Source: a virus
Taxonomy: Duplodnaviria; Caudoviricetes
Virus record (IMG/VR): IMGVR_UViG_3300035703_000118
Location: 1-56,030 of that record
Reading direction: 5' to 3' (one strand)
Length of the DNA stretch: 56,030 nt
Notes under the pieces: generated by a model
Databases searched by the model: none
Seen by the model: only the letters and a program-made list of their open reading frames with translations
Told to the model about the DNA's origin: nothing
Shown here: positions 6,831-56,030 of the stretch, in pieces
Layout of the letters: the number at the start of each line of letters is the position of its first letter
How positions within the stretch are numbered: position 1 is the stretch's first letter
Position numbers and translations under genes: made by a program

Positions 6831-6847
6831 AGTCAGGCCAGTCTAGC

Positions 6848-6885
6848 AAAAGAAACAGGCCCCCAACCGGTGAAGGTCAGGGGCC
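6848..6885 (-). terminator. Intrinsic terminator upstream of the terS promoter
   Basis: Minus-strand stem GGCCCCTGACC...GGTTGGGGGCC followed by TGTTTCTTTT; a TGCTAGACT extended -10 follows. Confidence 0.7.
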
Positions 6886-6925
6886 GTAGCGCCGTGGCGC
6901 GGAAACGACTTGTCTAGAGCCGGAA

Positions 6926-7168
6926 CTACTCTACCATCTCTGGAAGTTCAACCATTCCGCTCACGGCAAACTCAAACATGCGCTTCGGCTCGATAACTTC
7001 ACCGTCAATACTATGCTCATGCGTCCAAAGTGGCGTGATAAACACCTGCACATCCGGCCCAACCTTATCCATGTGGGCCATCACAAACACGAACGCATCC
7101 TGCACGCTCGGCACCACCTTAGCGTAGCGCGCCGTGTATTCGGTGGGGCTTTCCGACAACTGGATCAC
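6926..7168 (-). CDS. Hypothetical protein
   Basis: 80 aa in a tightly packed minus-strand operon. Confidence 0.65.
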   Translation of the reverse strand: MIQLSESPTEYTARYAKVVPSVQDAFVFVMAHMDKVGPDVQVFITPLWTHEHSIDGEVIEPKRMFEFAVSGMVELPEMVE

Positions 7169-7169
7169 T

Positions 7170-7400
7170 TTAGACTTCCGTTCGCTCTACAAAAACGTGA
7201 TCGACGTTGGGGCGGGCGCGCACATCCTCCACCAGCCGCTGCAAAATGGCAACATCGCCGGGGTTGGAAATCCACTCATTATCGACCGATTCGCCTTTAT
7301 TGATTGCTTTTGCAAGCCGATCAATCGCCGCCACGAGCGACCGGATGCTGTCACGCGACTGCCGATCCAGCGACACTTCTACGTTTTGTGCTTTAGCCAT
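7170..7400 (-). CDS. Hypothetical protein
   Basis: 76 aa, coupled to neighbours. Confidence 0.65.
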   Translation of the reverse strand: MAKAQNVEVSLDRQSRDSIRSLVAAIDRLAKAINKGESVDNEWISNPGDVAILQRLVEDVRARPNVDHVFVERTEV

Positions 7401-13013: not shown

Positions 13014-13292
13014 GTGGGAAGAAGAAGCATTCTCGACAGCGAGGCGTTTGGGCGGCTGAAAGGTGAACTTGACATGGCTGCTGAAAACCTGGAGGCCGAA
13101 AAAGCGAGTGCGAAAATCCACCTGGAAAATCTGGCACGCAAAATGGACGCTAAAAAGGCGCGAGCAATTGTGGCCGCTAAAGACGCAGGGTTGAGTGATT
13201 ATGCAATTGGTTTAGCGTCAGGCCACACTTCGCATAATTCACGCCGCGCACTAATTCAGTGGGCATTTGATTTGGAGGCGGGAAATGCCTAG
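13014..13292 (+). CDS. HTH-like DNA-binding protein, paralog 1
   Basis: AGGAGG RBS; coiled coil followed by GLSDYAIGLASG. Confidence 0.65.
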   Translation: MGRRSILDSEAFGRLKGELDMAAENLEAEKASAKIHLENLARKMDAKKARAIVAAKDAGLSDYAIGLASGHTSHNSRRALIQWAFDLEAGNA

Positions 13293-18823: not shown

Positions 18824-19401
18824 GCGAGTTTGAGTACATTGAGTGCCCTGAAGGTCAAGAGCAAGGCCCAGCGATTGAGGGCACAGCGCCCTACTGTGTG
18901 CCCGCCGACGAGGCAAATCCCAGTGCGCCCGTACTGGAAGTGGGCTTGTTGATCTACAAGAAGCTCGACGCCACACTCCCCGCAGCGTGGCCCAATTCGG
19001 GAGAGCAGACGTTTATTGCTGCGCAACCGGGCACGAACTGGTTTACGGTTTTCCCCGGCGAGTTGCCCGCGCATGTGTGCGGTGACGGCTGGGCGGTGCA
19101 GCAGGACGCCATTGAGCATGACGGCAGTTTCGTGTGGCCGCTGACGATTACCTACCCGGACAACGTGTTGTCGAAGGCTGGCGTGTTGAATGCCGCCATT
19201 CACCAGGAGTTGTCGGAGTTGGTTGACGTGCCTGAGTGCGTTACGGTCACGCCCGAGCCGACGCCGCCGCCTACGGCCCCGCGCGAACTTGCGGAAACTG
19301 GCTTTGACCCCTTGACCGGAATGCTTTTTGCCGGTAGTGTTTTCCTTATCGGGGTTGCTGTTCTGGTGGCCCGTTCTCTGCGCAAGGGGGCCAAAGCATG
19401 A
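18820..19401 (+). CDS. Membrane protein with C-terminal LAxTG sortase-like signal
   Basis: PEPTPPPTAP spacer, LAETG, ~20-aa hydrophobic segment, RSLRKGAK basic tail. Confidence 0.7.
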   Translation: MSEFEYIECPEGQEQGPAIEGTAPYCVPADEANPSAPVLEVGLLIYKKLDATLPAAWPNSGEQTFIAAQPGTNWFTVFPGELPAHVCGDGWAVQQDAIEHDGSFVWPLTITYPDNVLSKAGVLNAAIHQELSELVDVPECVTVTPEPTPPPTAPRELAETGFDPLTGMLFAGSVFLIGVAVLVARSLRKGAKA

Positions 19402-19661
19402 CCTACTACAAGTGCGACGACTGCGGTGAAACTTTTGACCGCACCGAAATGGTGTTTGACGAGTCGGGCGAAATCCAAATGTGCCAGACCGATTGGGCTG
19501 ATTTCATGGGCGCACTGGCGTCCGAGGCTTACGCTGACCGTTACCACGACCCGCGCCCCGCTGTCGGTGGCTACGACCCGCACGACCCGAAGCGCCCCGA
19601 CTATGTTGAGCGGCTGCTTGACGCGGCTGACGATTTGCGTAGTGAGCGGGCTTTCGCATGA
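19398..19661 (+). CDS. Zinc-ribbon-like protein
   Basis: CDDC...CQTD; ATGA overlap. Confidence 0.65.
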   Translation: MTYYKCDDCGETFDRTEMVFDESGEIQMCQTDWADFMGALASEAYADRYHDPRPAVGGYDPHDPKRPDYVERLLDAADDLRSERAFA

Positions 19662-19918
19662 CGCGCGGGGGCAACGGCTTGCAATATAGGCTCAACATTG
19701 ATCTGGGTAATTTGCGTGATGCGCTTATCACCTACCTGGAAGATGTTGACGGCGGCTGGTACGACATGCTGAGCAAGGAAGATTTTGTGCAGCGGGTGCG
19801 TATTGCCCTCGATGATCTTGACGAGTCGGAGCTGGGCGCAATGCATGACCAGTACATTCGGGACGACGAAGGCCCGAAACCACACGATTCCAGCACCACG
19901 ACGACAGGGGAGCAGTGA
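19658..19918 (+). CDS. Hypothetical acidic protein
   Basis: 86 aa, coupled. Confidence 0.65.
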   Translation: MTRGGNGLQYRLNIDLGNLRDALITYLEDVDGGWYDMLSKEDFVQRVRIALDDLDESELGAMHDQYIRDDEGPKPHDSSTTTTGEQ

Positions 19919-20172
19919 TGACACGACAGTTTGCCGTCGTATTCAACCCGGACGGCACGCACGTTGTGGAGGCGGTCGGCCCCTTTCGCTCGCCAGAGCG
20001 TGCGCAAGAGGTCATGGAGCGCCTTGAGCGGGCCATCGACTCACACGCGCCAGACGAGTTCCAGGACTTTGCTTGGCGCATCCCGCGAGTGGTGACCTTC
20101 ATCACCGAGCAGGAGGCAATCGACGAGTACGGAGTTGTTCCGCATTCGCCCGATTCCGAGAGCGACCAGTGA
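19915..20172 (+). CDS. Hypothetical protein
   Basis: 85 aa, coupled. Confidence 0.65.
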   Translation: MMTRQFAVVFNPDGTHVVEAVGPFRSPERAQEVMERLERAIDSHAPDEFQDFAWRIPRVVTFITEQEAIDEYGVVPHSPDSESDQ

Positions 20173-20278
20173 GCGCGTGCGGAGTGAAGCATCTGGAGGT
20201 CGGTTACGGCCATTGCCCGAAGTGCTGCGCGATCTGCCGTGAAGAGTTCGCTGCCCCTGTTTCCGGGGAGGGTGACCG

Positions 20279-20464
20279 ATGAGCGGGTTCAGACTCGAAA
20301 CTGCCCACCGGCACCCTGACCCCGACGACCGCGAATCGCGAGACCTGCCGTGGGATCAACACATCTGTGTCGATCACCGGCCACATTCAGGTAAGGCCCG
20401 CGACTGCATGGTGACGTACCCAGTGCCGACTTCTCCTGATTCCCGCACGGAGGGGGAGTCGTGA
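20279..20464 (+). CDS. Small hypothetical protein
   Basis: 61 aa; shares CCTGATTCCCGCACG near its 3' end with the next gene. Confidence 0.6.
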   Translation: MSGFRLETAHRHPDPDDRESRDLPWDQHICVDHRPHSGKARDCMVTYPVPTSPDSRTEGES

Positions 20465-20640
20465 GCGCGCAAACGTGTGCAGTCTGCGGGCAGGGCGGCT
20501 ACTGGGTGGGGTATGACGAACTTGCTCGCGAAGATCGGTGTCTCAACCACGTTGAGATGATGAGGACAAGCCATCTTGACCGCGCGCCCATCATTCCTGA
20601 TTCCCGCACGATCGACCTTGAGGGGGTTTCTGGTGAGTAA
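20461..20640 (+). CDS. Small CxxC...CxxH protein (59 aa)
   Basis: MSAQTCAVCG...RCLNH...EGVSGE; GTGA overlap; below the ORF-track cutoff. Confidence 0.6.
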   Translation: MSAQTCAVCGQGGYWVGYDELAREDRCLNHVEMMRTSHLDRAPIIPDSRTIDLEGVSGE

Positions 20641-21088
20641 CGAAGAACTGATTGCACGGCTGAAGAACCTGTCATTCCACACGTCAAGCCGGGAACTCAG
20701 CGAGATGGTCAGACTTGCTACTGTCGCTCTCGAAGCGCAGTCTGCCCCGCATTGCTCCAACTGTGACTACATGGAGGGCATTGAGGAGGGCATGAAGATG
20801 CGCCCTGCCCCGTTGGTGGCCGACTCGCGGGAGGCGCTGGCGAACGCGCTGGGCGTGGCGCTGGCGAACGCTTACGACGACGATTCCGTTGTGACGGTTG
20901 AGGAGTGTGTGGCCGATACTCTGCTTGCCTCGGGTGTTGTGTCTCTCGCGGCTGACCGTGACCGGGCCGAAGACCCCTACTGTCGCGCCGAGGATTGTCA
21001 GTATCTGAACTGGACTAGCGGCTCCATTCCGACTCACAAGCGCGGCTCGACGTGCCCCAACCCCTACCGTGAGAGCGAGGGCAAGTGA
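20633..21088 (+). CDS. Array gene A1 (SNEELIAR family)
   Basis: Paralog of 24166..24582. Confidence 0.75.
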   Translation: MSNEELIARLKNLSFHTSSRELSEMVRLATVALEAQSAPHCSNCDYMEGIEEGMKMRPAPLVADSREALANALGVALANAYDDDSVVTVEECVADTLLASGVVSLAADRDRAEDPYCRAEDCQYLNWTSGSIPTHKRGSTCPNPYRESEGK

Positions 21089-21175
21089 CCGAGGAAGAAG
21101 CGGCAATGATGCGTCTGCGGATCACGGCGCGCTGGATCGCACAAAATCAACCTGAACCTGAGAGCAAGGCCCGCA

Positions 21176-21616
21176 ATGACTGACTACACGCCAACCGTGG
21201 AAGAGGTGCGCGAGTTCTACAGCGACAAGTGGGATTCCTACTTTGACGAGGCGAACACGCGCGATTACATCGAAGGGCGCATCGCTGACTTCGACCGCAT
21301 GATTGCCGCTGTGGAGCGTGCTGCGGCTGTGAAAGCGTTACGGGACTTTGGCGCAGACCTGCTAGAGCGCGTTAAGCCGGTCGTGATGCACGAGGGTTCC
21401 GGTGCAGTGTTCTCTAATAGCCCGAAGGGTGACTCGACGGAGTTCTGGTCGTACTCGAACGCGAGCGCGTACACGATGGCTGTGCTCGAAGTGTTGCGGC
21501 TTCTCAGTGTCGAGCCGGAGCAGATGCAAGCGACCACCTATCACGGCGGGCGCAGTGAGCGTCGGGACTTCCAGACAGCACTGGCCGACCGTATCGAGAG
21601 TGGGGAGCAAGCGTGA
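21176..21616 (+). CDS. Array gene B1 (YTPTxEEVR family)
   Basis: Paralog of 24579..24950 and 9285..9527. Confidence 0.75.
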   Translation: MTDYTPTVEEVREFYSDKWDSYFDEANTRDYIEGRIADFDRMIAAVERAAAVKALRDFGADLLERVKPVVMHEGSGAVFSNSPKGDSTEFWSYSNASAYTMAVLEVLRLLSVEPEQMQATTYHGGRSERRDFQTALADRIESGEQA

Positions 21617-21846
21617 GTCGAGAGATTCCGGTGCGGTTCCCGCCACCGCTAGCGCAGACAAAGCGCAACGCCGAAGGGCTGCGCGTGCCCGTCATGCAAG
21701 AGCCTGTTATGGAGTGCGGGCAGACGGTTCGACTTGGCGGCAAGTTGGTGCAATGCATACGACAGGCAGGGCATCCGGTTTATGTGGCTTGGGGCCACAC
21801 GAACGGTTACGACGAGTGGTGTTTTGACGAGGAGGAGCAAGCATGA
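21613..21846 (+). CDS. Cassette gene present only in array 1
   Basis: 77 aa, flanked by direct GGAGCAAGC(G/A)TGAG repeats. Confidence 0.7.
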   Translation: MSREIPVRFPPPLAQTKRNAEGLRVPVMQEPVMECGQTVRLGGKLVQCIRQAGHPVYVAWGHTNGYDEWCFDEEEQA

Positions 21847-22133
21847 GCACTGTGGATGAGTGGGCCAAGCGAGAAGCGGAGCGCGAGTACCCGGATGCGG
21901 TTGATGGCTCGACGACATTTCGGCTGGATACAGAGCGTCAGGTTTACATGGAGGGGCTTTTGGCCGTGGCCGCTCTGTTGTTGAGCGACGAAGCCGTAGA
22001 AGCGGCGGCGCTGTCCGGGTGGCACCCCGTGGTGTGGTCCGATGTCAGCGAAGTGGTGAGAGAGTCCGAGAGAACACGAGCGCGCGCCGCTCTCACTGCC
22101 GCTTTGACCAAGATCACGGAGGACAAGGAATGA
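21843..22133 (+). CDS. Array gene C1 (STVDEWAKREAE family)
   Basis: Paralog of 24947..25276. Confidence 0.75.
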   Translation: MSTVDEWAKREAEREYPDAVDGSTTFRLDTERQVYMEGLLAVAALLLSDEAVEAAALSGWHPVVWSDVSEVVRESERTRARAALTAALTKITEDKE

Positions 22134-22399
22134 CCGCACGGGATGAACTGACGCAAGCACTAGGTGTTGCTCTCGCCAATGCTTATGACGATGATTCGGC
22201 GGTGAGCATTGAGGAGCCGGTTGCTGATGCCCTGCTCGCGGCCAATTACAGGAAAGTACCCGACAGAACGGCCCTGCGGCGAGCGATATGGGAAAGGTTT
22301 GCAGTTAGGTTCGGAGAACCTTTCAGCCCGGTTGTGCTTGAAATGACTGACGATGCAACTGACGCAATTTTGGCTTTGATGGATGGGGACAACGAATGA
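22130..22399 (+). CDS. Array gene D1 (TARDEL...DAILALMDGDNE family)
   Basis: Paralog of 25273..25629. Confidence 0.75.
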   Translation: MTARDELTQALGVALANAYDDDSAVSIEEPVADALLAANYRKVPDRTALRRAIWERFAVRFGEPFSPVVLEMTDDATDAILALMDGDNE

Positions 22400-22408
22400 G
22401 TCTGCTGG

Positions 22409-23860
22409 ATGCTTGACGCCCTCACGCCGCACGAATGGCAAAATCGCGACATCGAAAACCTGCTGTTCTGGGACTGCACAGGCCTGGTTGCGGTGCAAAC
22501 CGGTGGCGGTAAGTCGCTGGTCGCGGTGGAAACCGCGCTGCGTTCAGGGCACCACACTCGCGGGGCAGTGCTGGTGATCGCGCCGAAAAGTACGTTCAAG
22601 AAAACATGGGTTCAGACCTTTGAGCGGCAAGGTGGCATTACGCCCAGGAAGATCAACTCGACCAAAGACGGCAAGCAAGCCGAAATGGATTTGCGGTTCA
22701 ACGAGCCGGGTGTGTACCTCATCAACCACGAGTTGTTTACGCGCCGCGACTGGGCGGGCGTTGAGGTTGAGTTGTGCATCACGGATGAAGCTCACAAGAT
22801 GTCCAACTACCAGATGTTGACGAAAAAGAAGGTCAACTCTGGCGCGTGGAAGTTGACGCATTTTGCAGCGAAGCGCCGCATTGCAATGAGTGCTACACCG
22901 TACCGCAACAACTTCTCGAACATTTGGACTTTGCTGCGTTGGCTTTATCCCGACCAGAATGGCCGAGGTCAGATTGCTGATCGCTCATTCTGGCGGTGGG
23001 TCGAAGAATGGTGCGTGGTCGAAAACGATTACTTCGCGGGCAAAGTGGTGCGCGGCGAACTGGTGCCGGGAAAACTGGTCAGCCAGATTCCGTGCTACAT
23101 CTACCACGCGAAACGCCAGCCGTGTTGCGATTTCCACCCGGAAGGCTTTTTGGCAACCGACGAGCCGGAGCGCATTGTACGCACTGTCGAATTGTCGCCC
23201 GCAATGAAAAAAGCCTACAAGCAACTGGAAGAAGACTATGTTGCGTTCTTGGGCGATAACCCCCTGGTGGTGGAACTGCCCATTGTGATGCGTGCGCGGC
23301 TACGTCAAATGTCGCTGGGCATGATCCAGGTGGACGAGAATGACAACGTGACTTACGCGGTTGACTGCGAAAGCCCGAAGTATGACGATTTGAAAGATGT
23401 ACTAGAGCAGGAAATCCCTGGTGAGCCTGTTTTGGTGGTGACCCACTCGAAGCAGTTTGCGATTGTGCTGGCCGAAAAGTTGCGGCGCGACGGATACACG
23501 GTTGCCGAGTGGCATGGCGACCTGAAGCAGTCCGAGCGGGATGCTGAGGGTGAGCGGTTTGAGGCTGGCGAGGCGCAGATCATGGTTGGCACGATTCAGG
23601 CAATGGGGACTGGCACCGACTTTTTGCAGCGAGTTACCCAGACGATGGTGTGGATGTCACGAACTGACGACAGCACGGACAATGAGCAAGGACTTGGCCG
23701 TCTTGACCGCATGGGAGGTTTGGGGCGCGTTGTGAGCATCGAGATTCAGGCGGAGGGGACTTATGACGCTGGCGTTATGGGCAAGGATTTGCAACACGCT
23801 TTGGAAATGAATCGCACACTTGCCGGTGCATCAAATGTCGGCCAGGCTGACAATGAATGA
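22409..23860 (+). CDS. SF2 (SNF2-like) DNA helicase
   Basis: TGGGKS, DEAH, SATP, GTGTD and QGLGRLDRMG motifs. Confidence 0.92.
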   Translation: MLDALTPHEWQNRDIENLLFWDCTGLVAVQTGGGKSLVAVETALRSGHHTRGAVLVIAPKSTFKKTWVQTFERQGGITPRKINSTKDGKQAEMDLRFNEPGVYLINHELFTRRDWAGVEVELCITDEAHKMSNYQMLTKKKVNSGAWKLTHFAAKRRIAMSATPYRNNFSNIWTLLRWLYPDQNGRGQIADRSFWRWVEEWCVVENDYFAGKVVRGELVPGKLVSQIPCYIYHAKRQPCCDFHPEGFLATDEPERIVRTVELSPAMKKAYKQLEEDYVAFLGDNPLVVELPIVMRARLRQMSLGMIQVDENDNVTYAVDCESPKYDDLKDVLEQEIPGEPVLVVTHSKQFAIVLAEKLRRDGYTVAEWHGDLKQSERDAEGERFEAGEAQIMVGTIQAMGTGTDFLQRVTQTMVWMSRTDDSTDNEQGLGRLDRMGGLGRVVSIEIQAEGTYDAGVMGKDLQHALEMNRTLAGASNVGQADNE

Positions 23861-23873
23861 AGGGGAGGTAACT

Positions 23874-24173
23874 ATGACCATGAACGCAAATAGCTCGCTC
23901 AGCACTTACGGCCAATTGCCGGAATCTTTGGCGTGCGCAGAGCAGGTGGATGGCCTGTACCGCGAAGTGAACATTGCGGCGAACCGCTGGTGGGATGCGT
24001 CCGGTGGCGTCGTCGGCGACATCACTGTTGAGCCGTTCAACACCGATGGCTCGTACCGCATCTGTGTTGTGTATTGGGGTTTCAAGACTTACTTCCCCGA
24101 CCTTGCTGCCGCCGATGGTTGGGTTGAGCGCATGGAGGCGGCTCGCAACCCGAAGGGGGTTCCTGGTGAGTAA
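23874..24173 (+). CDS. Hypothetical protein
   Basis: GGAGG RBS before MTMNA; ends GVPGE at the array-2 junction. Confidence 0.65.
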   Translation: MTMNANSSLSTYGQLPESLACAEQVDGLYREVNIAANRWWDASGGVVGDITVEPFNTDGSYRICVVYWGFKTYFPDLAAADGWVERMEAARNPKGVPGE

Positions 24174-24582
24174 CGAAGAACTGATTGCACGCATTGATGC
24201 CTACTTTGATGGAGGTACACCGATTGACGCGGCAGAGAGTTTGCTGATGCGTGCTCGGGCGGCTCTCGAAGCGCAGTCTGCCCCGTTGGTGGCCGACTCG
24301 CGTGAGGCGCTGGCGCGATGGTTCGCTGAGCGGCGCGGGCATATTGTTCCGAGGTCTGGCGATGTGTTGAACGCTGATGCTCTTCTCACTTCGGGTGTTG
24401 TGTCTCTCGCGGCTGACCGTGACCGGGCGGTCGAAGATGGTTTTGAGTACCGCCGTGTTGCCCCCGGAGGGCGGGTCTGGTTTCCCACGTTTGACGAGCC
24501 GCCGTTGTTGGATGAGGGCTTCACGATGCAACGTCGCGCCGTTGGTGAGTGGCACCCCTACCGTGAGAGCGAGGGCAAGTGA
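24166..24582 (+). CDS. Array gene A2
   Basis: SNEELIAR...ALEAQSAPLVADSREALA...SGVVSLAADRDRA...PYRESEGK shared with A1. Confidence 0.75.
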   Translation: MSNEELIARIDAYFDGGTPIDAAESLLMRARAALEAQSAPLVADSREALARWFAERRGHIVPRSGDVLNADALLTSGVVSLAADRDRAVEDGFEYRRVAPGGRVWFPTFDEPPLLDEGFTMQRRAVGEWHPYRESEGK

Positions 24583-24950
24583 TGGCTGCTCGAAATTGCA
24601 TCTGCGACGGCGGCTCGTTCGATATTCGCAGTCGGCCTTTCATCGTCAACGTGCAGTGTGTTGTTCACGGCGCGTTGGGTGGGCACGCTGTGGCGGCTGA
24701 CGAGTACACGCCGACCGTGGATGAAGTGCGGCGGGATTATGCGGCTGGTCGTGACCGTATGGGCTTGGTGATTGACCTCGACACGCACGCCGACTTTGCC
24801 CGGTTCCTTGCCGCTGTGGAGCGTGCTGCGGCTGTGAAAGCGTTACGGGAAGCGGCAGTGATGTTGGAGAACCGACGGGGTAACCTCGCGTACTCATGGG
24901 AGATGGTTCGCGCCGAGGCAGACCTTATCGAGAGTGGGGAGCAAGCATGA
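24579..24950 (+). CDS. Array gene B2
   Basis: YTPTVDEVR...AAVERAAAVKALR...IESGEQA. Confidence 0.75.
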   Translation: MMAARNCICDGGSFDIRSRPFIVNVQCVVHGALGGHAVAADEYTPTVDEVRRDYAAGRDRMGLVIDLDTHADFARFLAAVERAAAVKALREAAVMLENRRGNLAYSWEMVRAEADLIESGEQA

Positions 24951-25276
24951 GCACTGTGGACGAGTGGGCCAAGCGAGAGGCGGAGGAGCGTTACCCGCCT
25001 GAGCACTATTACGGCAATTTGGATGAGTGTGATGCGGCGCAGGAAGCGGGGTCATGGGGCATCAACCGTTTGGCCGCTCTGTTATTGAGCGACGAGGCCG
25101 TGGAAGCGGGGGAGGCCGAGCAGATGAACCACGCACGCAACATCGTCTTTGATGGCGGCTGTGCCTGCGGTGAGCCGTTTCCGCTGACGCTGGCGGGCAT
25201 CCGGGCGCACGATGTTCATGTGATGCGCGCCGCTCTCACTGCCGCTTTGACCAAGATCACGGAGGACAAGGAATGA
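24947..25276 (+). CDS. Array gene C2
   Basis: STVDEWAKREAE...AALLLSDEAVEA...RAALTAALTKITEDKE. Confidence 0.75.
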   Translation: MSTVDEWAKREAEERYPPEHYYGNLDECDAAQEAGSWGINRLAALLLSDEAVEAGEAEQMNHARNIVFDGGCACGEPFPLTLAGIRAHDVHVMRAALTAALTKITEDKE

Positions 25277-25629
25277 CTGATGAGTGGACGCAGGAGCAGC
25301 TGCAGTCTCATGCTTTTGAGAAGGGGCTTGTCGTGACCGCACGGGATGAACTGGTGCAGTGGTTTGCTGACCGTAGGGTTGGCGGTGTCGCTTTGGTTGC
25401 GAGTCCTGAGGACTACGAAACGGCAGAGGCCTTGCACGCGGCGGGTTGGCGGAAGATGCCAAGCCGGGAGAACGTGATTGATCGTTTGCGCGCCGCAGAG
25501 CACGCGCCGATGTACGACCACGACGAACGCGACGGCTCATGCCGCTCGTGCCCGTGGCCGCTTCACATGCTGGCCCCGGAAGACATCGCTGACGCAATTC
25601 TGGCTTTGATGGATGGGGACAACGAATGA
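25273..25629 (+). CDS. Array gene D2
   Basis: TARDEL...RKxP.R...DAILALMDGDNE. Confidence 0.75.
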   Translation: MTDEWTQEQLQSHAFEKGLVVTARDELVQWFADRRVGGVALVASPEDYETAEALHAAGWRKMPSRENVIDRLRAAEHAPMYDHDERDGSCRSCPWPLHMLAPEDIADAILALMDGDNE

Positions 25630-25814
25630 ACCTAGAAGCACGCGCCCTAGCACTCCTTGAAGATGGCGCATCGTACACCGAAACTGCCCGCACAATCGGC
25701 AAATGTCGTAACTGGGTTGCAAGCCGCTTTCCCGGTAGGGGCTGGACAAAGCAGGAGGGCGGCGCGTATGGTTACATGATGCGTAAAGCCAACGAGAGAA
25801 TGGAGTTGAAGTGA
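25626..25814 (+). CDS. Small HTH protein
   Basis: LLEDGASYTETARTIG...WV..RFPGRGW. Confidence 0.7.
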   Translation: MNLEARALALLEDGASYTETARTIGKCRNWVASRFPGRGWTKQEGGAYGYMMRKANERMELK

Positions 25815-25899
25815 GCGAAGATTCAGGATATGCCTTTCTTGCTGGGCTAATTGCTGGTGCTGTGCTTGTGCTTATTGCGATTTTGATTGGAGGGTTGGG

Positions 25900-26118
25900 A
25901 TGACCACCGCAGAAATCAACGCATACTTGGTTTGGCGTGCGCAGCGTGAAGGCCGACAGGTTGATGTGTCGCCGGAGGCCTACGAGGCACATTTGCTCAT
26001 TGAACGAATCATGGAAATCTGCGTTTCCCTCCATGAAGGGGAGGACGAGATGACTTCCGCACTTTTGGAACTTTACGAACTGACCCAGGAATATCACCGA
26101 CTCGAAAAGGAGAACTAA
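25900..26118 (+). CDS. Hypothetical protein
   Basis: 72 aa, GGAGG RBS. Confidence 0.65.
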   Translation: MTTAEINAYLVWRAQREGRQVDVSPEAYEAHLLIERIMEICVSLHEGEDEMTSALLELYELTQEYHRLEKEN

Positions 26119-26648
26119 TGCCCCGACCAACGAAAGCCCAACAGATTGCCCGCGAGCAGGATGCCGCAAAGTTGGCCCGCTACCAGGAGCAGGAGGCTAA
26201 GCGCGCCACACGCATAATGGCCGACACGCCTCCGGTGCTCTGGGCGCTTCTGGTGTTGTCAGCGATTGCGTTGCTCACCTCGTTTGTATTTTCCTACTTC
26301 GCCCTCGTGGAAGTTGCAGTGTGGATGCGACCGCCGCAGGAATGGTTGACGCTGCTCGTCCCCGGCTTCATTGAGCTTGTTATCGTGCTCTCTGCCCTTG
26401 ACTACGTTGTGGCGCGAAGCCGTGGTGAGTCGGGGCGCACGCCGTTTTGGATGATGATTGCTATGAGTGCCGTCGCCGTCATTGGTAACGCCGCCCACAC
26501 GTTCTACGAATGGCTTGCCGAGTTTGATGCGGTGCCGTGGGAAGGCTGGCTGGGCGTTGCGCTGTCGGCCATTGTGCCGCTGATTGTCGTGTACATCTCA
26601 AAGCGCATCACGTCCACCGTCTTCAGCGAGCCTATTGTGCTGGACTAA
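26118..26648 (+). CDS. Four-TM membrane protein (DUF2637-like)
   Basis: SF..SY.AL..VA, P..IE, GNAAH and SA..P motifs with four hydrophobic segments. Confidence 0.65.
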   Translation: MPRPTKAQQIAREQDAAKLARYQEQEAKRATRIMADTPPVLWALLVLSAIALLTSFVFSYFALVEVAVWMRPPQEWLTLLVPGFIELVIVLSALDYVVARSRGESGRTPFWMMIAMSAVAVIGNAAHTFYEWLAEFDAVPWEGWLGVALSAIVPLIVVYISKRITSTVFSEPIVLD

Positions 26649-27568
26649 TGTTCACCCCAACTGGCGTGCATGGCGGGGTGATGTATTGCAAGTACGAGCA
26701 CCCCCTGACCGAATCAAACCGCAGGTGGCGTACCGATCTTCGCAGGCAAAACGGCGGGTACTGGGTGTGTCGGATTTGCGAAAAAAACCGCCAGGTTTCA
26801 CGCAACAAGCCCGAATACAAAAAGACCTTACGCAACGCCTCAAAGGGCAAGTTCTGCAATCATGGTCATGCGCTCGAAGGCGACAACATGATGTGGCATA
26901 AAGACGCGCGCCGTGAGGCTGGCGGGTTTTACACCTGCAAGACTTGCTTTCGCACCAACGCATCTAAGCGGCAGGCCAATTACCGCAAGCGCAAAGCGCG
27001 GCAGGAGCATTTCACTTACGTTGGGCCGCGAGAAATGATTGCCGAAGTTGCGCAGCAGATTGTTGATTCTGCGCTGGAAAAGACGGAGGCCGAAAAACTC
27101 GTTACGCTCAAGGCTGGCCTGGTTGCTCATGCTAGACTCATGCGGCGACCGACTTCTGAGCCTGCTACGGCGGAACAGTTTGAGGCCGAGTTCGCCCGAG
27201 CGTCCGACGAAATGTGGAAGGCAGTTGACCGGCTGATGGCTGCTGAGAAGAAAAACCCGCTGGCGCATCTGAACGTGAAGCCCGATGCTGAACGCGCGTG
27301 GGATCGGTTTAATAAGGCGCTGGAAGAGGCGCGGCTGACCGGCGAGAACGTGCCGAACTGTCAGGATCGCCCTGCGGAGTTTGTTGATTACGATGAAGAT
27401 AACTTGCCGACCGCCGATGAGGCGTATAGGCTGTGCCGCGGCGATGAAAATACGCCGAAATGCCCACTGCTGGAACTGTGTGCCGTATATGCCGAACAGG
27501 AGCGCCCCGCTTGGGGCATCCATAGTGGTGAAGTATGGGTCATGGGCGAACCAGTGAACAACGAGTAG
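26648..27568 (+). CDS. WhiB-like protein fused to two Cys/His zinc-ribbon repeats
   Basis: Two C-x3-H...N...GG-x3-CxxC repeats; C-terminal four-Cys domain (NC...LC...CP...C...WGIHSG) resembling the WhiB GVWGG turn. Confidence 0.7.
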   Translation: MFTPTGVHGGVMYCKYEHPLTESNRRWRTDLRRQNGGYWVCRICEKNRQVSRNKPEYKKTLRNASKGKFCNHGHALEGDNMMWHKDARREAGGFYTCKTCFRTNASKRQANYRKRKARQEHFTYVGPREMIAEVAQQIVDSALEKTEAEKLVTLKAGLVAHARLMRRPTSEPATAEQFEAEFARASDEMWKAVDRLMAAEKKNPLAHLNVKPDAERAWDRFNKALEEARLTGENVPNCQDRPAEFVDYDEDNLPTADEAYRLCRGDENTPKCPLLELCAVYAEQERPAWGIHSGEVWVMGEPVNNE

Positions 27569-28003: not shown

Positions 28004-28666
28004 ATGACTGAATACACCGCACCGCACGTCTACACCGCCCTGTTGGCGATCTTCAAGGACATTGAGGTTGATAAGGATGGCACGCTGCCCAGCAATATGA
28101 GTGGCCGCGCCTACGTCACCGCTGGCAATTTGAGCGCCAAAATCAAGGAGCAGTTTGTCAAGCATGAGCTGATCTTCCACCCGGTCTCGGAGCGCATCAT
28201 CCACCACGAGGTTGCGCAAGATAAGACGCAGCGCACACTGATTGCCCTGTCCGTTGAGGGCACCTACCGGATCATCAGCACCAAGGATGGTTCGTTCATC
28301 GAAATCGGTGGGGCTGGTGACGGCCTCGCAACCGCGACGAGTGTGGCAAACAACATTGCGTCAACGAACGCTCTGAAGAACGCCCTGTTGCGCCTGGTGA
28401 TGGCGACTGAAGGCGGCGTTGAGAGCCAGTCGAAGGATGGCATTGGCGAGGCTGATTCTGCGCCCGCGCAGGTGTCGGGTCTTGCCGCCGTGCGCAAGCG
28501 CCTACAGGATGCGTCGAAGGCGGTCGAAGGCCCGGTGAAAGGTTCGGAGTACCTTGACCTGATTCTTGCATCGTCGGAAGGGGACTTGTCCTCGAAGACC
28601 CTGAAAGACATTTGGGGCGACGAGCAGGCGTTGACCGTGCTTGAGTCGCTGGTGGCTAAGGCGTGA
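28004..28666 (+). CDS. ERF-family single-strand annealing protein
   Basis: V.KDG...AY...K..F.KHEL...DGS.I...G.G......A.T.A.K.AL pattern; next to exonuclease and SSB. Confidence 0.7.
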   Translation: MTEYTAPHVYTALLAIFKDIEVDKDGTLPSNMSGRAYVTAGNLSAKIKEQFVKHELIFHPVSERIIHHEVAQDKTQRTLIALSVEGTYRIISTKDGSFIEIGGAGDGLATATSVANNIASTNALKNALLRLVMATEGGVESQSKDGIGEADSAPAQVSGLAAVRKRLQDASKAVEGPVKGSEYLDLILASSEGDLSSKTLKDIWGDEQALTVLESLVAKA

Positions 28667-29173: not shown

Positions 29174-30046
29174 ATGACTCGCGGCCCAGCCCTGGCACAA
29201 TACTGGAGCGCCGAAGAAAACGACGGACGCGGCTATAAACGCCCCAGCACTGGTGAGCAAGTACCGGGTGTGACATCCATCACCGGCCTGGTTAACAAAG
29301 ACTTGGCGCAGTGGGGCGCAGACCTTGCAACCCGCTGGATGTCTGAGCACTGGTTTCAGTGGAATCCCGGCCAACGCTCCGAAGAGTCTGCGTTCAATTC
29401 GGCGCGCTACAAGTGGAAAGATTACCGCAACGAGCGAGGCCAGGTTGGTACGAACGTCCACAACTACATCGAAGACTTGCTCCTGGGCAGGAATCCGCTC
29501 TTTGAGTTTTTGGAGCCGGAAGAACAACGGCGCGTCTTGCAGTTTGAAGACTTCTGCTTCCTGACCGGCTTTGAGGCTACGGCCACCGAGCGGCAAGTGT
29601 GGGGCGGTTCATACGGCGGCACGCTGGATGCTCATGGCTGGATGTATTCGGAGCGCCTGGGGCGTAAAGCTCATGGGCTGTTCGATTGGAAGACTTCCAA
29701 GCGTGCGTATTTTGAGTACATGATGCAACTCGCTGCACTGAAGAATGCCGACTTCCAGTTCATTCAGCGCCCGCAAGCCGAGGCTGACACTAGCCCGCTG
29801 GTCAAAGACGGTAAGACGACTCACTGGGCTGAAGTGCCAATGCCGGAAGTGGAGACAGCTTGGATTGTGCATCTTACTGACGACAACTGGGCGGTTCACG
29901 AGTTGACGGATGAGGAGATGCACTTGTCTCGATTTGCCGCGTACACTGAAGTTTGGTGGGCGGAGAAGCGTCTGAAAGAAACGCTGGGCGCGCGGGGCCA
30001 GAAACTTGATCGCCCCGTAGACTGGTTTGATCCGAAAAAGGATTGA
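29174..30046 (+). CDS. PD-(D/E)xK exonuclease (RecE/Cas4-like)
   Basis: PGVTSI, GTNVH..IE, YGGTLD, DWKTS and QLAA motifs. Confidence 0.85.
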   Translation: MTRGPALAQYWSAEENDGRGYKRPSTGEQVPGVTSITGLVNKDLAQWGADLATRWMSEHWFQWNPGQRSEESAFNSARYKWKDYRNERGQVGTNVHNYIEDLLLGRNPLFEFLEPEEQRRVLQFEDFCFLTGFEATATERQVWGGSYGGTLDAHGWMYSERLGRKAHGLFDWKTSKRAYFEYMMQLAALKNADFQFIQRPQAEADTSPLVKDGKTTHWAEVPMPEVETAWIVHLTDDNWAVHELTDEEMHLSRFAAYTEVWWAEKRLKETLGARGQKLDRPVDWFDPKKD

Positions 30047-31266: not shown

Positions 31267-33477
31267 ATTAAGCACCTTGACCAGCGGGAGTTTCTGACAA
31301 AACTGTTCAGCGGCCTAGACTTCGGCTACGTTCAACTTGTCACCAGCCCCACCACTGGGCCGGATGTAAAGTTCAACATGCCGCGCACCTACGACCTGTT
31401 CACGGGTTTCGGTGACTTTTTAGAAGACGCTAAGCGGCTTTCCGTGGGTGACTTGTGTTTCGCGGTTGCAGCATACGGTCAAGAATACCGGCGCAAGAAT
31501 GACCCCGAAGCGAAGACCCGCGTCGTGTATGCCGATGTGGACGGCCTTGACCCTAAAGATTTCCGGGTAGCACCCACATTCCTTGTGTCGTCTTCCCCCG
31601 GACACTGGCACGCTTACTGGTTGCTGGAAGATTTCGTGCTCAACGATGAGGCCGCAGAAATCTCCACCGCCATTGCCAAGGCGCACGGCTTGGATGCTTC
31701 AAGCGGTATTGCCACCAAACTGCTGCGGGTGCCGGGGAGCGTGAACACTAAGTATGCCCCTGCGCATACAGTTCAGGCGTACCAGAATGTTGAAACGCTC
31801 TACACGCTGGAGCGACTGGCGTCCTTCTATCCGCTGGGCGCTGTCGAGGCTTACGATTCGGTCGAGTTGCAAGCGCCGGTTGAATGGCCCAACTATTTTG
31901 ATGCGCTCGCAGAAATCCCTGCCGACAATCGCATCCAAATGCTCATGGAGTGGGACAAGCGTACCGCCGATGACCCAGAGAAACGTAGCGAGCACCGCTT
32001 TGAGTTGATCCGGTTGCTCATGGAGAAGACGCACCTCACCCCTGAGCAGATCGCTGTCGTTGTTTGGCACGCGCCAGTCTCCGACCATTTCCGTGAGCAA
32101 GACCGGCCCATTGAGCATCTGTATAAGTTTGATGTGGCGAAAGCTCTCGGCAAGCAGGTGGAGCCGACCGAGTTGGAGCGGTACGAGCCTGAAGAGGCCG
32201 TCACTGATGTGCAGTTCATCACCGCCGAAGAGATGATTGCCGTCTACGAAACCCCCGGCTTTTTAGACAAGTGGCGTGAAATCAACTACGCCAACCTGCA
32301 TCCGAAAACGCCCGACCAGTACGTGCGGATCAACGGCTACGCGCTGCTGAGTGCGGCTCTGGGTAACAAGGTTACGGTGATGCCTCCAGGCACGTCGCGC
32401 GCTGTGTTCTGCAACTTGTACGTGCTCAACGTCGGGCAAACCACATCGGGTAAATCTGAGGCCCTGTTTATTCTGAAGCGGTTTATCAAGGCTTATAGCG
32501 AGAAGGTGGGCTATGAACTGTTTGTCGGCTCGTCAGCCACGTCGGAAGGTCTTATCAAGGCCCTGAAGGGCTACGACAAGCGCACGGCTCTGCTCATCAC
32601 CGAAGAAGTGTCGGGCAAGTTCCGCTCGTGGGCGAACAGTGCAAACATGGCGCACGCTCGTGAGACTGAGCTTGAATTGTACGACAACTATTTGCCGAAA
32701 AACTTGCGTGCCGGTGATGGTGCTGGCTCGGTGGAGAACGTTCACTTGTCGTTTTCGCAGTACATGATGGGTGTGGATTCAGAAGTGGAAGGCTTGCTTG
32801 ATCGCGGCTTTCTACGTTCCGGCTACCTGCCGCGTGTTCTCGTGGTGAAAGGTGAGCGCAGCATCTTTGACGCCTCCGAGCAGTTGGAGATTCCGCAGGG
32901 TGACCCCGACAAAACGCAAGACGTTGACCCGATTCCCGGCATTTGGGCTGAATCTTTTGCCGAGTCGATTCGCCGCAACAGTCGTCACGAGCAGGGCCGC
33001 TTTGGCTACATGGTGATGCAGTTTGAGGATGATGCCTGGTCGCGCTTTTTGCAGTTCCGTGCGAGCCTGCTGAAGTTTGCGGAATCCCACGAAGACCCGG
33101 ATGTGGTGCGTCCGATGGCGATTCGTTTTGCAATCAGTGCCCAGAAGATGATGGCGTTGCTTGCTTATGAGCGCGCTGCGGGTGTTGTGCAGATGATTGA
33201 CGTTTTGCGCGTGCTGGCCGACTGCGAAGATTTCTGGGGCTGGAGTATGGACTTAGTGCAGGGCGTGTCCGATTCGGCGTTTGCTCGGATGCAGGATGAG
33301 GTGCTAACGTGGCTGATTGCCCGCAACCGTAAGGCGCGTCTGGTGGACTTCCACACCCGCTACGCCTCGTGGACATTGAAAGAACGTAGTGATGTGCTCG
33401 AAAGTCTGATGGCTCGTGGCGTTGCTGCGGTTAGGACTAGCGATAAAGGATCGAAACACTTGGAGATGGCAGAATGA
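31267..33477 (+). CDS. RepB-like primase (AEP) fused to a P-loop helicase (DUF3987-like)
   Basis: YADVD, SSPGHWHAYW, LLRVPG..N.KY and Walker A GQTTSGKS. Start is either ATT 31267 (inferred) or ATG 31378. Confidence 0.85.
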   Translation: MKHLDQREFLTKLFSGLDFGYVQLVTSPTTGPDVKFNMPRTYDLFTGFGDFLEDAKRLSVGDLCFAVAAYGQEYRRKNDPEAKTRVVYADVDGLDPKDFRVAPTFLVSSSPGHWHAYWLLEDFVLNDEAAEISTAIAKAHGLDASSGIATKLLRVPGSVNTKYAPAHTVQAYQNVETLYTLERLASFYPLGAVEAYDSVELQAPVEWPNYFDALAEIPADNRIQMLMEWDKRTADDPEKRSEHRFELIRLLMEKTHLTPEQIAVVVWHAPVSDHFREQDRPIEHLYKFDVAKALGKQVEPTELERYEPEEAVTDVQFITAEEMIAVYETPGFLDKWREINYANLHPKTPDQYVRINGYALLSAALGNKVTVMPPGTSRAVFCNLYVLNVGQTTSGKSEALFILKRFIKAYSEKVGYELFVGSSATSEGLIKALKGYDKRTALLITEEVSGKFRSWANSANMAHARETELELYDNYLPKNLRAGDGAGSVENVHLSFSQYMMGVDSEVEGLLDRGFLRSGYLPRVLVVKGERSIFDASEQLEIPQGDPDKTQDVDPIPGIWAESFAESIRRNSRHEQGRFGYMVMQFEDDAWSRFLQFRASLLKFAESHEDPDVVRPMAIRFAISAQKMMALLAYERAAGVVQMIDVLRVLADCEDFWGWSMDLVQGVSDSAFARMQDEVLTWLIARNRKARLVDFHTRYASWTLKERSDVLESLMARGVAAVRTSDKGSKHLEMAE

Positions 33478-34109
33478 GTAGCCCCAAGGACATTTATCAC
33501 ATTGAACCAATAGAGTCAAAGTTCGCCCAGGCCCTTGTGGTAGAGAATCATTACCTGCACCGCCGCGCTCAGTGCATGTTTGCTTTTGGGCTATTCGAGG
33601 GTGAAGAACTTATCGGTTGCGTCATCTGGGGTAAGCCCGCATCTCCCTGGCCCTGTCGCGGCATCTGTGGCCCGGAAGAAGCCGATCACGTTTTGGAGTT
33701 GACCCGCCTCTGGATTGATGACAAGTCTGTAAAGAACGCCGAGTCTTTTTTGATCGCATCGAGCATCAAGATGCTACCGGAAAAGTATGACATTTTGCTT
33801 TCCTATGCCGAGATTCAGCAGGGCCACGTTGGCGTTGTTTACCAAGCAACCAACTGGCTTTTTACCGGCATGTCTGACAAAAACCTCGAATGGTGGGTTG
33901 ATGGCAAGCCACTGAAGCACTCTCGTCACGCTTTTGACGAACTGGGTGGCGTCGCTGAGGCCAAGAAGCATTATGGTTCGCGCATGGAAAAGATGGAGCG
34001 ACCCCGGAAGAATCGCTACATCATGTTTCGAGGGTCAAAGAAGAGGAAGAAGGAACTTATGTCAAAGTTGCGCTACAAGCCAATGCCGTACCCCAAGGCC
34101 GAGCAGTGA
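33474..34109 (+). CDS. Mom-like adenine-modification protein (GNAT fold)
   Basis: NHYLH, FGLF....LIG...WG.P, ELTRL, NAES..I...I, LSYA....GH.G.VYQA.NW..TG pattern. Confidence 0.8.
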   Translation: MSSPKDIYHIEPIESKFAQALVVENHYLHRRAQCMFAFGLFEGEELIGCVIWGKPASPWPCRGICGPEEADHVLELTRLWIDDKSVKNAESFLIASSIKMLPEKYDILLSYAEIQQGHVGVVYQATNWLFTGMSDKNLEWWVDGKPLKHSRHAFDELGGVAEAKKHYGSRMEKMERPRKNRYIMFRGSKKRKKELMSKLRYKPMPYPKAEQ

Positions 34110-34867
34110 AACCACCGTTTCCCTACTATGGGGGCAAGCAGAGAATCGCAGAGAAGATCATCGAGACCTTTCCGGCGCACGGGCACTACATTGAGCCTTT
34201 CGCTGGCGGGCTGAGCGTGCTCTTGGCTAAAGAGCCGAGCAAGCACGAGACCGTCAACGACCTCGACAAGTCCCTGGTGACTTTCTGGCGCGTGTTACGA
34301 GAGCGGCCCGAAGAACTTTACAATGCGTGCCTGCTGACGCCGTGGTCGCGTTCAGAGCAAAAGACTTCTACCGACCTTGATGTGCCCGATGAACTGGAAG
34401 TTGCTCGCAGGGTTTTTGTGGCGCTGACCCAAGGGCGCGGTGCTCGGCTGAGCAATACGGGTTGGCGCTTTGTGTCCGATCCGAAGTCACCCACACCCAT
34501 GTCCCGCTACCGGGACGGCTATGTTTCGCGCCTTATGCCCGTTGCCGAGCGGTTGCATTCTGTCACCCTGGAGTGCCGTGATGCGCTTGATGTTATCAAG
34601 ACTTACGGGCGAAAGGGCGCGCTGCTGTACGTTGACCCGCCCTACCTTGCCGAGACTCGCTCTGGGACTGGCTACGGGGTCGAGATGGAAGATGTAGATT
34701 CCCACCGCGGGCTTGCCGAAGTTTTGCGTGCCACTGAAGCCAGCGTCTGCTTGAGTGGGTATGACTCGCCACTGTACGCGGAACTGTACCCCGGCTGGAA
34801 TCGGCTGGAAATCAAAGCTCGCGCCAACTCGGGTAGTCGAACCGAAGTGTTGTGGATGAACTACTGA
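34106..34867 (+). CDS. Dam-family (D12) N6-adenine DNA methyltransferase
   Basis: FPYYGGK, EPFAGG, NDL, DPPY and E.LW.NY motifs. Confidence 0.93.
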   Translation: MKPPFPYYGGKQRIAEKIIETFPAHGHYIEPFAGGLSVLLAKEPSKHETVNDLDKSLVTFWRVLRERPEELYNACLLTPWSRSEQKTSTDLDVPDELEVARRVFVALTQGRGARLSNTGWRFVSDPKSPTPMSRYRDGYVSRLMPVAERLHSVTLECRDALDVIKTYGRKGALLYVDPPYLAETRSGTGYGVEMEDVDSHRGLAEVLRATEASVCLSGYDSPLYAELYPGWNRLEIKARANSGSRTEVLWMNY

Positions 34868-36638: not shown

Positions 36639-37173
36639 AGAACTCGACCTAGAGCCGGAAGAGCCGCAGGAGATTGCACCCCGTGACTTCCAGTTGCGCT
36701 CTAAGCCGCACGTCACCACACCCCCGGAAGAGTTGGCCCGCATTTTCGGCAAGCGCGACACGCTGGAAGACAAGCGCCTGCGGCTGGAATCTACTGCTCG
36801 CCCCAAGAGGGTGATTCAGGCTGCTCAGGAGGTTGCACCTGAGTTGCATATCAAGCGCACGAAGACCGGCGCGTGGAGCACGGCGAGCACCTGGGGCAAG
36901 ATCGTGACGCAACTGGAGGCGCTGGGCATCCCCTACAAGGTGGGCGAAAGCCACTACTTTTCAGGCGACGAAGTGAAAGCCATTATGGGCAAAGTAGAGG
37001 GCAAGCAGACGAAGCGCGTCACCGACTACGTGCTGATTCCCGGCACCGACCAGATGCATGTGTGGTTGAACTTCCCATGGAAAGGTTCACTTGCTGCGGT
37101 GCGGGGTTCTGAGGTATCGTGGGCGAATCGAGTGTATAGCTCGACGGAATGGATGGAGGAGATGGTTAAATGA
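36628..37173 (+). CDS. Hypothetical protein
   Basis: 181 aa, phage-like codon usage. Confidence 0.7.
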   Translation: MDDEELDLEPEEPQEIAPRDFQLRSKPHVTTPPEELARIFGKRDTLEDKRLRLESTARPKRVIQAAQEVAPELHIKRTKTGAWSTASTWGKIVTQLEALGIPYKVGESHYFSGDEVKAIMGKVEGKQTKRVTDYVLIPGTDQMHVWLNFPWKGSLAAVRGSEVSWANRVYSSTEWMEEMVK

Positions 37174-37619
37174 TCTACCTAGGCATTGATCCGGGCAAAA
37201 GAAGTGGCATTGCATTTGTTATGGCCGACGACGATGCGGTCATTCTGATGAACACGAAAGAAGTTTACGGCGGCGAAGAAGGCTTCGTGGCCTGGTGGGG
37301 GGACGCACGCACGGCGCTGACCGCCATCCCCATGAGGATCGTCTATGAAGGCTTTTCCACACGCGAGGGTAAGCACGGGGTAGATCACACGCCCGAGCGC
37401 GTCATTGGGGCACTGAAGGCTTTAGCGAACAGAGATGGGCTGAGCATTACCGAGCGACCGCCTGCGGGTCGTAAACGCCAAATGCCGGACGCTGCGCTGA
37501 AGCGACTGAACCTCTACGTGCCCGGTGAGGCTAACAGGAATGTGCGCGAGGCGGTGCGTCACGTTGCGTCGCATCTCAAGACCATGAAGAACCCGGTTGT
37601 CCTAGACGCATTCCGGTGA
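37170..37619 (+). CDS. RuvC-like Holliday junction resolvase
   Basis: N-terminal LGIDPG..SG.A, central VYE and C-terminal REA.RH. Confidence 0.8.
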   Translation: MIYLGIDPGKRSGIAFVMADDDAVILMNTKEVYGGEEGFVAWWGDARTALTAIPMRIVYEGFSTREGKHGVDHTPERVIGALKALANRDGLSITERPPAGRKRQMPDAALKRLNLYVPGEANRNVREAVRHVASHLKTMKNPVVLDAFR

Positions 37620-55903: not shown

Positions 55904-56030
55904 GGTAAGCTTCGACTGGGTTTGCCCTGAGCCTCTGCGCAGCCTTTGCAGTCGCTCCTCTGCCGTCAACCTTACCTTTTCTTTTCGCGGGTATCGCTCT
56001 CTCATGGTCGCAATTCTCTTTGCTTCGGAC
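55904..56030. repeat. Terminal direct repeat, copy 2
   Basis: Identical to 1-127. Confidence 0.95.

Follow-up and report, generated by a model that had tools for sequence, protein, structure and literature searches.

IMG/VR record IMGVR_UViG_3300035703_000118, analysed here over its whole length of 56,030 nucleotides (nt; hereafter the window), is a complete viral genome of the Caudoviricetes with direct terminal repeats, in which the 127 nt at positions 1-127 recur as 55904-56030. Within it lie two arrays of small genes on either side of an SNF2 helicase gene, in the order U-A-x-B-y-C-D, helicase, U-A-B-C-D, all on the + strand and with every open reading frame (ORF) open (Table 1). A duplicated gene order A-B-C-D had been proposed in an earlier note on this DNA, and the gene map agrees; array 1 additionally carries x1 and y1, and the arrays are preceded by the unrelated genes U1 and U2. 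Twelve of the 13 gene junctions in the region are stop/start overlaps of 4 or 8 nt, and given these overlaps the small array genes are probably translationally coupled.

Neither Pfam nor PHROGs holds a family matching A, B, C, D, U, x or y, a protein Atlas search with B1 returned no named family, and fold searches with a model of B2 gave nothing below E 0.3. The AlphaFold2 model of B2, computed from 98 sequences, consists of three helices at a mean pLDDT of 89.7, and a profile search for family B reached 719 representative clusters at E <=0.001 and 50 at 1e-10. In the helicase between the arrays, both the N-terminal ATPase domain with its DEAH box and the Helicase_C domain are present.

The two arrays are tied together by short stretches of identical DNA. 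A whole-window scan for exact direct repeats of at least 18 nt found 13, comprising the terminal repeat, a lone 19-mer and 11 collinear inter-array pairs of 20-53 nt, and it recovered all eight block pairs that the earlier note had listed, with 22359-22399 matching 25589-25629 at 40/41. The lone 19-nt repeat (13164-13182 / 53621-53639) is the sole one outside the arrays and the terminal repeat. The arrays have 222 12-mers in common; in 200 first-order Markov simulations the mean count was 0.6 and the highest 5. Thirteen blocks of 20-56 nt were numbered b1 to b13; b1, b5, b6, b8, b9 and b11 span gene ends or starts, and the others sit inside A, B, C and D. In the B2 model, blocks fall on the N-terminal segment, the middle helix and the C-terminal end. 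Twelve blocks could be placed in array 2, and over these the two arrays show 17 mismatches in 458 nt (96.3% identity).

Table 1. Genes, exact inter-array repeats, conserved blocks and recombination-related genes of the window (positions in nt; aa, amino acids)
Feature	Position	Strand	Partner in array 2	Description
U1	20461-20640	+		59 aa; precedes array 1; final codons and stop inside b1
A1	20633-21088	+		151 aa; GTG start, 8-nt overlap with U1 stop; blocks b1-b5
x1	21085-21183	+		32 aa; array 1 only
B1	21176-21616	+		146 aa; b6, b7, b8; belongs to a large family of small proteins with three helices
y1	21613-21846	+		77 aa; array 1 only
C1	21843-22133	+		96 aa; b9, b10, b11
D1	22130-22399	+		89 aa; b12, b13
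SNF2/DEAD-type helicase	22409-23860	+		between arrays; PF00176, PF04851, PF00270, PF00271; phrog_62 at 1.5e-78
U2	23853-24173	+		precedes array 2; unlike U1 except for common end in b1
A2	24166-24582	+		138 aa
B2	24579-24950	+		ORF of 123 aa; family core from 24693
C2	24947-25276	+		109 aa
D2	25273-25629	+		118 aa; 60 extra nt after start relative to D1
Exact pair	20630-20658		24163-24191	29 nt
Exact pair	20726-20749		24262-24285	24 nt
Exact pair	20805-20829		24278-24302	25 nt
Exact pair	20930-20967		24391-24428	38 nt
Exact pair	21060-21088		24554-24582	29 nt
Exact pair	21303-21345		24808-24850	43 nt
Exact pair	21592-21612		24926-24946	21 nt
Exact pair	21834-21856		24938-24960	23 nt
Exact pair	22082-22134		25225-25277	53 nt
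Exact pair	22131-22150		25334-25353	20 nt
Exact pair	22371-22399		25601-25629	29 nt
b1	20621-20658	+	24154-24191	U end/A start; 1 mismatch/38; also in L009, L010, L011
b2	20726-20749	+	24262-24285	inside A; identical; two copies in L010
b3	20805-20842	+	24278-24315	inside A; 1 mismatch/38
b4	20930-20967	+	24391-24428	inside A; identical; three copies in L010
b5	21060-21088	+	24554-24582	A end and stop; identical
b6	21173-21212	+	24705-24730	B start; weaker partner, 88% over 26 nt
b7	21290-21345	+	24808-24850	B middle helix; identical over 43 nt
b8	21584-21617	+	24921-24951	B end/next start
b9	21834-21881	+	24938-24985	C start; 2 mismatches/48; three copies in L011
b10	21967-22005	+	25071-25109	inside C; 3 mismatches/39
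b11	22082-22134	+	25225-25277	C end/D start; identical over 53 nt
b12	22131-22150	+	25334-25353	start of D; identical
b13	22359-22399	+	25589-25629	D end and stop; 40/41
HNH-like gene	26537-27568			343 aa; about 900 nt downstream of array 2; weak phrog_826 match at 8e-6
Candidate single-strand annealing protein	28004-28666	+		ERF-like, lead only; would act in shuffling
Exonuclease	29174-30046	+		phrog_298 at 1.6e-24; would act in shuffling
RuvC-like resolvase	37170-37619

Between the blocks the resemblance ends. For the nine inter-block segments, global nucleotide alignments were no better than 200 shuffles (z -0.7 to 2.5), and no variable segment is common to array 1 and array 2. Seven of the nine length differences between these segments are multiples of three; the remaining two belong to segments across the A/x/B junction, where one frame gives way to another, so that the earlier description of unalignable, unequally long but in-frame segments holds with those two exceptions. 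Three additions have their own flanks: an 8-nt repeat stands on either side of the 63-nt in-frame insert of A1 (20750-20812), a 14-nt junction motif (within 21600-21617 and 21834-21847) on either side of the y1 gene, and the 60 extra nt of D2 are accompanied by a flanking repeat of only 4 nt. The inter-array differences are replacements together with in-frame insertions with repeated flanks.

A module common to A1 and D1 (20828-20926 and 22139-22237, the latter being the N-terminal module of D1) serves as a control for divergence. It stands at 69.7% DNA identity, with 21 of its 30 differences at third codon positions, and is an old paralog under protein selection. Set beside the 17 differing positions in 458 nt of blocks, this module argues that the blocks were not left by divergence spread out over the sequence, in line with the earlier contention that the pattern is not that of ordinary divergence after duplication.

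The same blocks recur in other loci. A word-indexed protein search with B1 gave 16 matches, the window's own protein included, and a B-family profile search led to five loci, L009 among viral contigs and L010-L013 in a metagenome collection. All 13 blocks are present in L011, and subsets of them in L009, L012, the partial locus L010 and the fragment L013, in every case in the order of the window and mostly at 88-100% DNA identity. When L009 and L011 (12-kb loci) were compared with the whole window outside the array, they shared one Mom-like gene and one protein match of about 40%; the Mom-like gene stands at 72% DNA and 76% protein identity, and no other gene outside the array links the window to L011 at the DNA level. 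With so little shared outside the array, the blocks present themselves as islands of DNA identity in otherwise unrelated genomes. Neither megablast nor blastn of region 20400-25700 against the isolate-phage collection found a match, tblastn with B2 matched no isolate phage, and tblastn with P0135, a more typical B member, gave only weak matches, in Microbacterium phage Min1 and Pseudanabaena phage Pan2. The helicase had no relative in the viral contig collection, and two exact 29-nt block patterns matched no other viral contig. The B profile found nothing in the genome collection and a second B profile, with a shorter first sequence, returned only the same viral contig again.

The relatives differ from the window, and from one another, in what the blocks enclose. 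L009 has two HNH_3 endonuclease genes in array slots (4920-5642 and 6521-7234): in one, the HNH_3 domain (1.6e-15) lies in frame between the C start block and the C end block, fused into family C, and the other occupies the U slot and ends in the same junction block; x is absent there, the A end being joined directly to the x end. Gene A of L010 (206-1330) is expanded to about 374-403 aa (403 aa stop-to-stop) and contains two copies of b2 and three of b4, two of the latter enclosing a WDGH domain (PF25311, 5.8e-34). In L011, b9 occurs three times, each copy opening a gene (one DUF7574 gene and two tandem C genes), and additional small genes stand between C and D; in L012, a y gene 88% identical to y1 occupies the same slot. 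The genes x1 and y1, like the extra genes of L011 and L012, sit between repeated junction blocks. In size the modules thus extend from about 55 nt up to entire domains and genes, and the added ones are bounded by duplicated blocks of 14-38 nt, which is exactly what unequal homologous exchange between blocks is expected to leave.

Module alleles are also reassorted among proteins. Among the 24 closest B proteins, the first and the second variable segment each have 19 alleles, which occur in 24 combinations, and for either segment three alleles are paired with two or more partners; P0002 carries the first segment of B1 beside a different second segment, and P0005 and P0044 carry the second segment of B2 beside different first segments. 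In family C, the first module of C2 is common to P0019, P0020 and P0024, its second module to P0018, P0021, P0022, P0023 and P0025, and the first module of C1 to P0028, while in family D the protein P0181 combines a D1-type first module with a D2-type second module. Module alleles recur in new combinations at 92-99% identity. A further set of proteins (P0072, P0102, P0105, P0117, P0122, P0151, P0156, P0174 and P0177) joins the front half of B to an A-like tail, a composition that suggests exchange between families A and B at a similar helix.

Reassortment extends to the order of whole genes. Of twelve metagenome runs, four were mapped, namely X1 (the probable source), X2 (from another study), X7 and X8; stretches of the window that X2, X7 and X8 leave uncovered carry no weight in what follows. 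Run X2 yielded one contig of 20,550 nt at 118x, in which a D-end block, the helicase, U2, an A1-type A, a C1-type C, 236 other letters and a D2-type D follow one another; relative to the window, its U2 has 4 differences in 316 nt, its A body 2 in 276 nt (without the 63-nt insert) and its D 11 in 131 nt. The U2 of the window is thus linked to A2-type modules and that of the X2 phage to A1-type ones, with the switch around b1 to b3. Loose contig ends from X1, X7 and X8 fall at block edges (21290, 21345, 21617, 21834, 21881, 24155, 25071 and 25276).

The explanation that we consider probable is that short conserved coding blocks serve, population-wide, as sites of homologous recombination, from which the mosaic arises. 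Phages with unrelated backgrounds have the blocks in common, shared sequence stops at block edges, alleles are reassorted, and duplicated blocks flank the extra modules. On this explanation, the region would be a plastic early-gene region of an uncultured tailed phage, each array offering families A-D and a free U slot; in a phage population sampled by at least four studies, the genes would be chains of 13 near-identical blocks and unrelated in-frame module alleles, the blocks standing at gene junctions and conserved helices and the modules reaching the size of whole domains or extra genes. New combinations would arise through equal and unequal homologous recombination starting in the blocks as crossover sites, during co-infection or with prophages; the exchange would probably be aided by the phage's own exonuclease and candidate annealing protein, and the two arrays would be two draws from a common module pool rather than a donor/acceptor pair converting itself. 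The earlier proposal of blocks as recombination handles is retained as far as sites of sub-gene module exchange are concerned, on the strength of the five loci, the reassorted alleles and the duplicated blocks. Of the diversification system without reverse transcriptase that had been proposed with it, the second half is sound, PF00078 being absent from a six-frame search of the genome, whereas a dedicated system found no support and mosaicism was seen at the population level only. The exonuclease invoked in the earlier note was recovered through PHROGs (Table 1), with no Pfam or NCBIfam match, and a weak SSB-like protein is also encoded in the genome.

Several points weigh against recombination at the blocks. 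We infer it from the product of a history, and selection could also set limits at blocks. Among the 24 close B proteins there is no complete four-gamete set, and in distant C and B relatives the block motifs drift in protein like any conserved motif. The interior of y1 is 89.7% identical between the window and L012, and the adjoining blocks show 3 mismatches in 34 and 4 in 48; a shared module has thus diverged about as much as the blocks next to it, so that the blocks are not specially frozen. The annealing protein counts against it as well: the earlier assignment of 28004-28666 to ERF is not supported, as PF04404 gave no match up to E 10 or in six frames, and PHROGs, NCBIfam and PDB sequences gave none either; a language-model look-alike search, in which 29 of the 30 nearest clusters belonged to the ERF set (best score 0.93), leaves an ERF-type annealing protein as a lead only. 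Finally, since the data are metagenomic and the k=31 contigs of X1 end at blocks, the linkage of every window module rests on the original metagenome assembly, and among the listed X1 contigs the array 2 pieces have a depth of 5.2-8.1, against 7.7-12.4 for the pieces of array 1 and the helicase.

The alternative that survives best, although we judge it rather unlikely, is that selection alone shapes the pattern: blocks would encode essential helices, ribosome-binding sites and start/stop overlaps, random illegitimate joins and indels would occur anywhere, in-frame survivors would be kept, and the blocks would have no role in recombination. The position of the blocks in the B model and the overlapping junctions (12 of 13) suit this account, as does the fact that distant relatives keep the motifs in protein with altered codons or residues; the 8-nt flanks of the A1 insert and the 4-nt flank of the D2 addition likewise fit illegitimate events. 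However, genomes whose remaining common genes stand at 40-76% protein identity hardly differ at the third codon positions of the blocks, for which protein selection alone is insufficient, and both the 14-38-nt duplicated blocks around extra modules, as unequal homologous exchange predicts, and the return of alleles at 92-99% identity in new combinations speak for recombination.

A bolder form of the recombination account, which we regard as unlikely, holds that the blocks are evolved in-frame cassette-exchange handles, kept identical so that the annealing protein can swap, stack or delete modules and whole small genes. If this were true, modules would be exchanged without breaking reading frames or translational coupling, early proteins, perhaps with counter-defence or host take-over functions, would gain combinatorial variation without reverse transcriptase or site-specific recombinase, and the second array would double the repertoire and could act as a reservoir.

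Homing endonucleases as drivers are another possibility, and a quite unlikely one: free-standing or fused HNH genes of the arrays would cut rival genomes near blocks, and repair would copy the donor's adjoining modules, whereby flanks would stay identical while cassettes moved. The two HNH_3 genes in array slots of L009 and the HNH-like gene downstream of array 2 (no Pfam family) are compatible with such a process, and the relatives in X2 and X7 with an insertion at the helicase DEAH box indicate that mobile selfish elements are active in the group. By Pfam and PHROGs, however, the window's own arrays contain no endonuclease, and thirteen distinct block sequences would require many specificities; such enzymes may add to recombination at the blocks rather than replace it.

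Very unlikely, in our assessment, is a self-contained device in which the two arrays of one genome swap modules by gene conversion in the manner of pilin genes. In pilin antigenic variation, gene conversion draws on silent cassettes, and conserved blocks alternate with variable mini-cassettes in repeated copies. The arrays of the window are co-oriented and share eleven identical stretches of 20-53 nt, and a crossover between them would, by the gene map, delete the helicase, so that only conversion-like events would survive. One block, b11, is clearly closer within the genome than to foreign loci, with 0 mismatches over 53 nt against 5 to L011 and 8 to L009, and it is the only one. Exchange between the two arrays, as the earlier note had envisaged it, is nevertheless not upheld: they have no variable segment in common, and their summed block identity of 96.3% is about the same as the 95.7% (20 mismatches in 464 nt) of array 1 to L011. 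Unlike silent pilin copies, both arrays consist of complete genes with starts and coupled junctions, and L009, L011 and L012, each with one array in its available DNA, have blocks and modules arranged in the same way.

An assembly artefact, in which modules of co-occurring strains had been fused through shared blocks, is highly improbable: the probable source run does contain a related phage at about 44x with the same blocks, its k=31 contigs break at blocks and array 2 pieces are somewhat less deeply covered, but the longest exact inter-array repeat is only 53 nt, which is short relative to usual read lengths and upper assembly k-mers, the eight listed X1 pieces tile the window without differences at 5-12x (depth 5.2-12.4, with 30 of 30 depth bins covered), the record closes with its 127-nt terminal repeat and is rated complete, the contig of an independent study holds the D-end block, helicase, U2 and A in one piece, and the block phenomenon recurs in five other loci. 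The co-occurring phage in X1 is L009-like, so that phages able to exchange modules are found together in one sample. Joints at about 44x in that run had been candidates for deletion variants of the window and were rejected, as they come from the L009-like phage, which matches the blocks only.

The origin of phage genome mosaics is an old open question, with exchange at conserved linkers on one side and random illegitimate joins sorted by selection on the other. A modular theory with linker sequences was reportedly put forward by Botstein in 1980, lambdoid phages have conserved boundary sequences, and for actinobacterial phages the view of illegitimate joins prevails. The present locus would provide a clean natural case for the linker view below the scale of the gene, combining thirteen handles, dozens of alleles, duplicated handles around domains and the same alleles in new combinations across samples of four studies, and it makes the choice between linkers and illegitimate joins testable. 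For annotation and family grouping, it matters that a large family of small proteins such as B (719 representative clusters) appears to be built from interchangeable pieces. Targeted variability in phage proteins is also produced by diversity-generating retroelements, through substitutions at adenines; such an element was rejected here, there being no reverse transcriptase and the variants differing in length and in unalignable sequence.

Among described systems, the closest in design are the gp38 adhesins and distal tail fibres of T-even phages, in which conserved glycine-rich motifs separate hypervariable segments and exchanges occur in or near the motifs (Trojet et al., 2011, PMC3157838, who cite Tetart et al., 1998). 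There as here, hypervariable segments within an ORF are set between short conserved motifs and natural chimeras show new combinations with limits at motifs, albeit with no full four-gamete set in B; the conserved parts, regarded there as a structural core, may play the same role here. Whereas gp38 is an adhesin, the array genes are small early ones in the neighbourhood of helicase and replication genes, with no Pfam or PHROGs family and no fold match for the three-helix model; their blocks also span junctions with stop, ribosome site and start, whole genes and domains (HNH, WDGH) act as modules, and four neighbouring families and two arrays share the design in a phage group unrelated to T4.

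Hyperplastic regions of T4-type phages offer a second comparison, as promoter-early stem-loop (PeSL) cassettes flank small genes there (Arbiol et al., 2010, PMC2839356) and recombination between the cassettes inserts, deletes and replaces genes. In both cases, short repeats flank small genes that are inserted, deleted or replaced in a plastic region, whereas PeSL elements are described as a non-coding promoter and terminator and the present blocks are coding and in frame. Regulatory cassettes of this type were rejected for the window, where the counts in 19000-27000 show no excess (promoter-like sites: 1, with 2.0 expected; terminator-like sites: 7, with 7.3 expected) and where 12 of the 13 junctions overlap.

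On the side of the machinery, Rad52-like recombinases, an Erf/Exo pair included, are described by De Paepe et al. (2014, PMC3945230) as recombining diverged and short homologies efficiently. The mosaics of temperate phages treated there resemble the present one in their short flanks of higher identity and in the annealing protein and exonuclease proposed as catalyst. They differ in that the exchanged units there are gene-sized or larger with flanks of partial identity, whereas here units of 55-240 nt, many of them within genes, have near-identical flanks of 20-56 nt; in addition, the recombinase of this phage is matched by no hidden Markov model. The principle of motif-bounded shuffling is therefore already known, and what is new is the setting in small early genes and in a phage group that is uncultured and probably actinobacterial, together with coding in-frame handles that carry stop/start overlaps, modules that extend from loops to domains to genes, and the involvement of four families and two arrays. 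A literature search, with supplements outside its reach, found no paper on these gene families or on block-delimited early-gene arrays.

Some features of the neighbourhood and of the helicase complete the description. The gene at 27581-27991 matches PF25682, a family of Mycobacterium phage VG64 (4e-54), and carries the PHROGs label of recombination directionality factor; because of this match and the weak leads, an actinobacterial host may be guessed. At 33474-34867, the Mom-like DNA modification gene and a DNA methyltransferase gene adjoin each other. In the helicase of the X2 contig, 1026 other letters replace 22766-22792, and X7 contigs break at both limits of this insertion (22765-22793; residues 119-129, the DEAH box of motif II), so that the relatives' helicase looks as if it carried an intein or another mobile insertion at the DEAH box, of which the window would represent the empty form.

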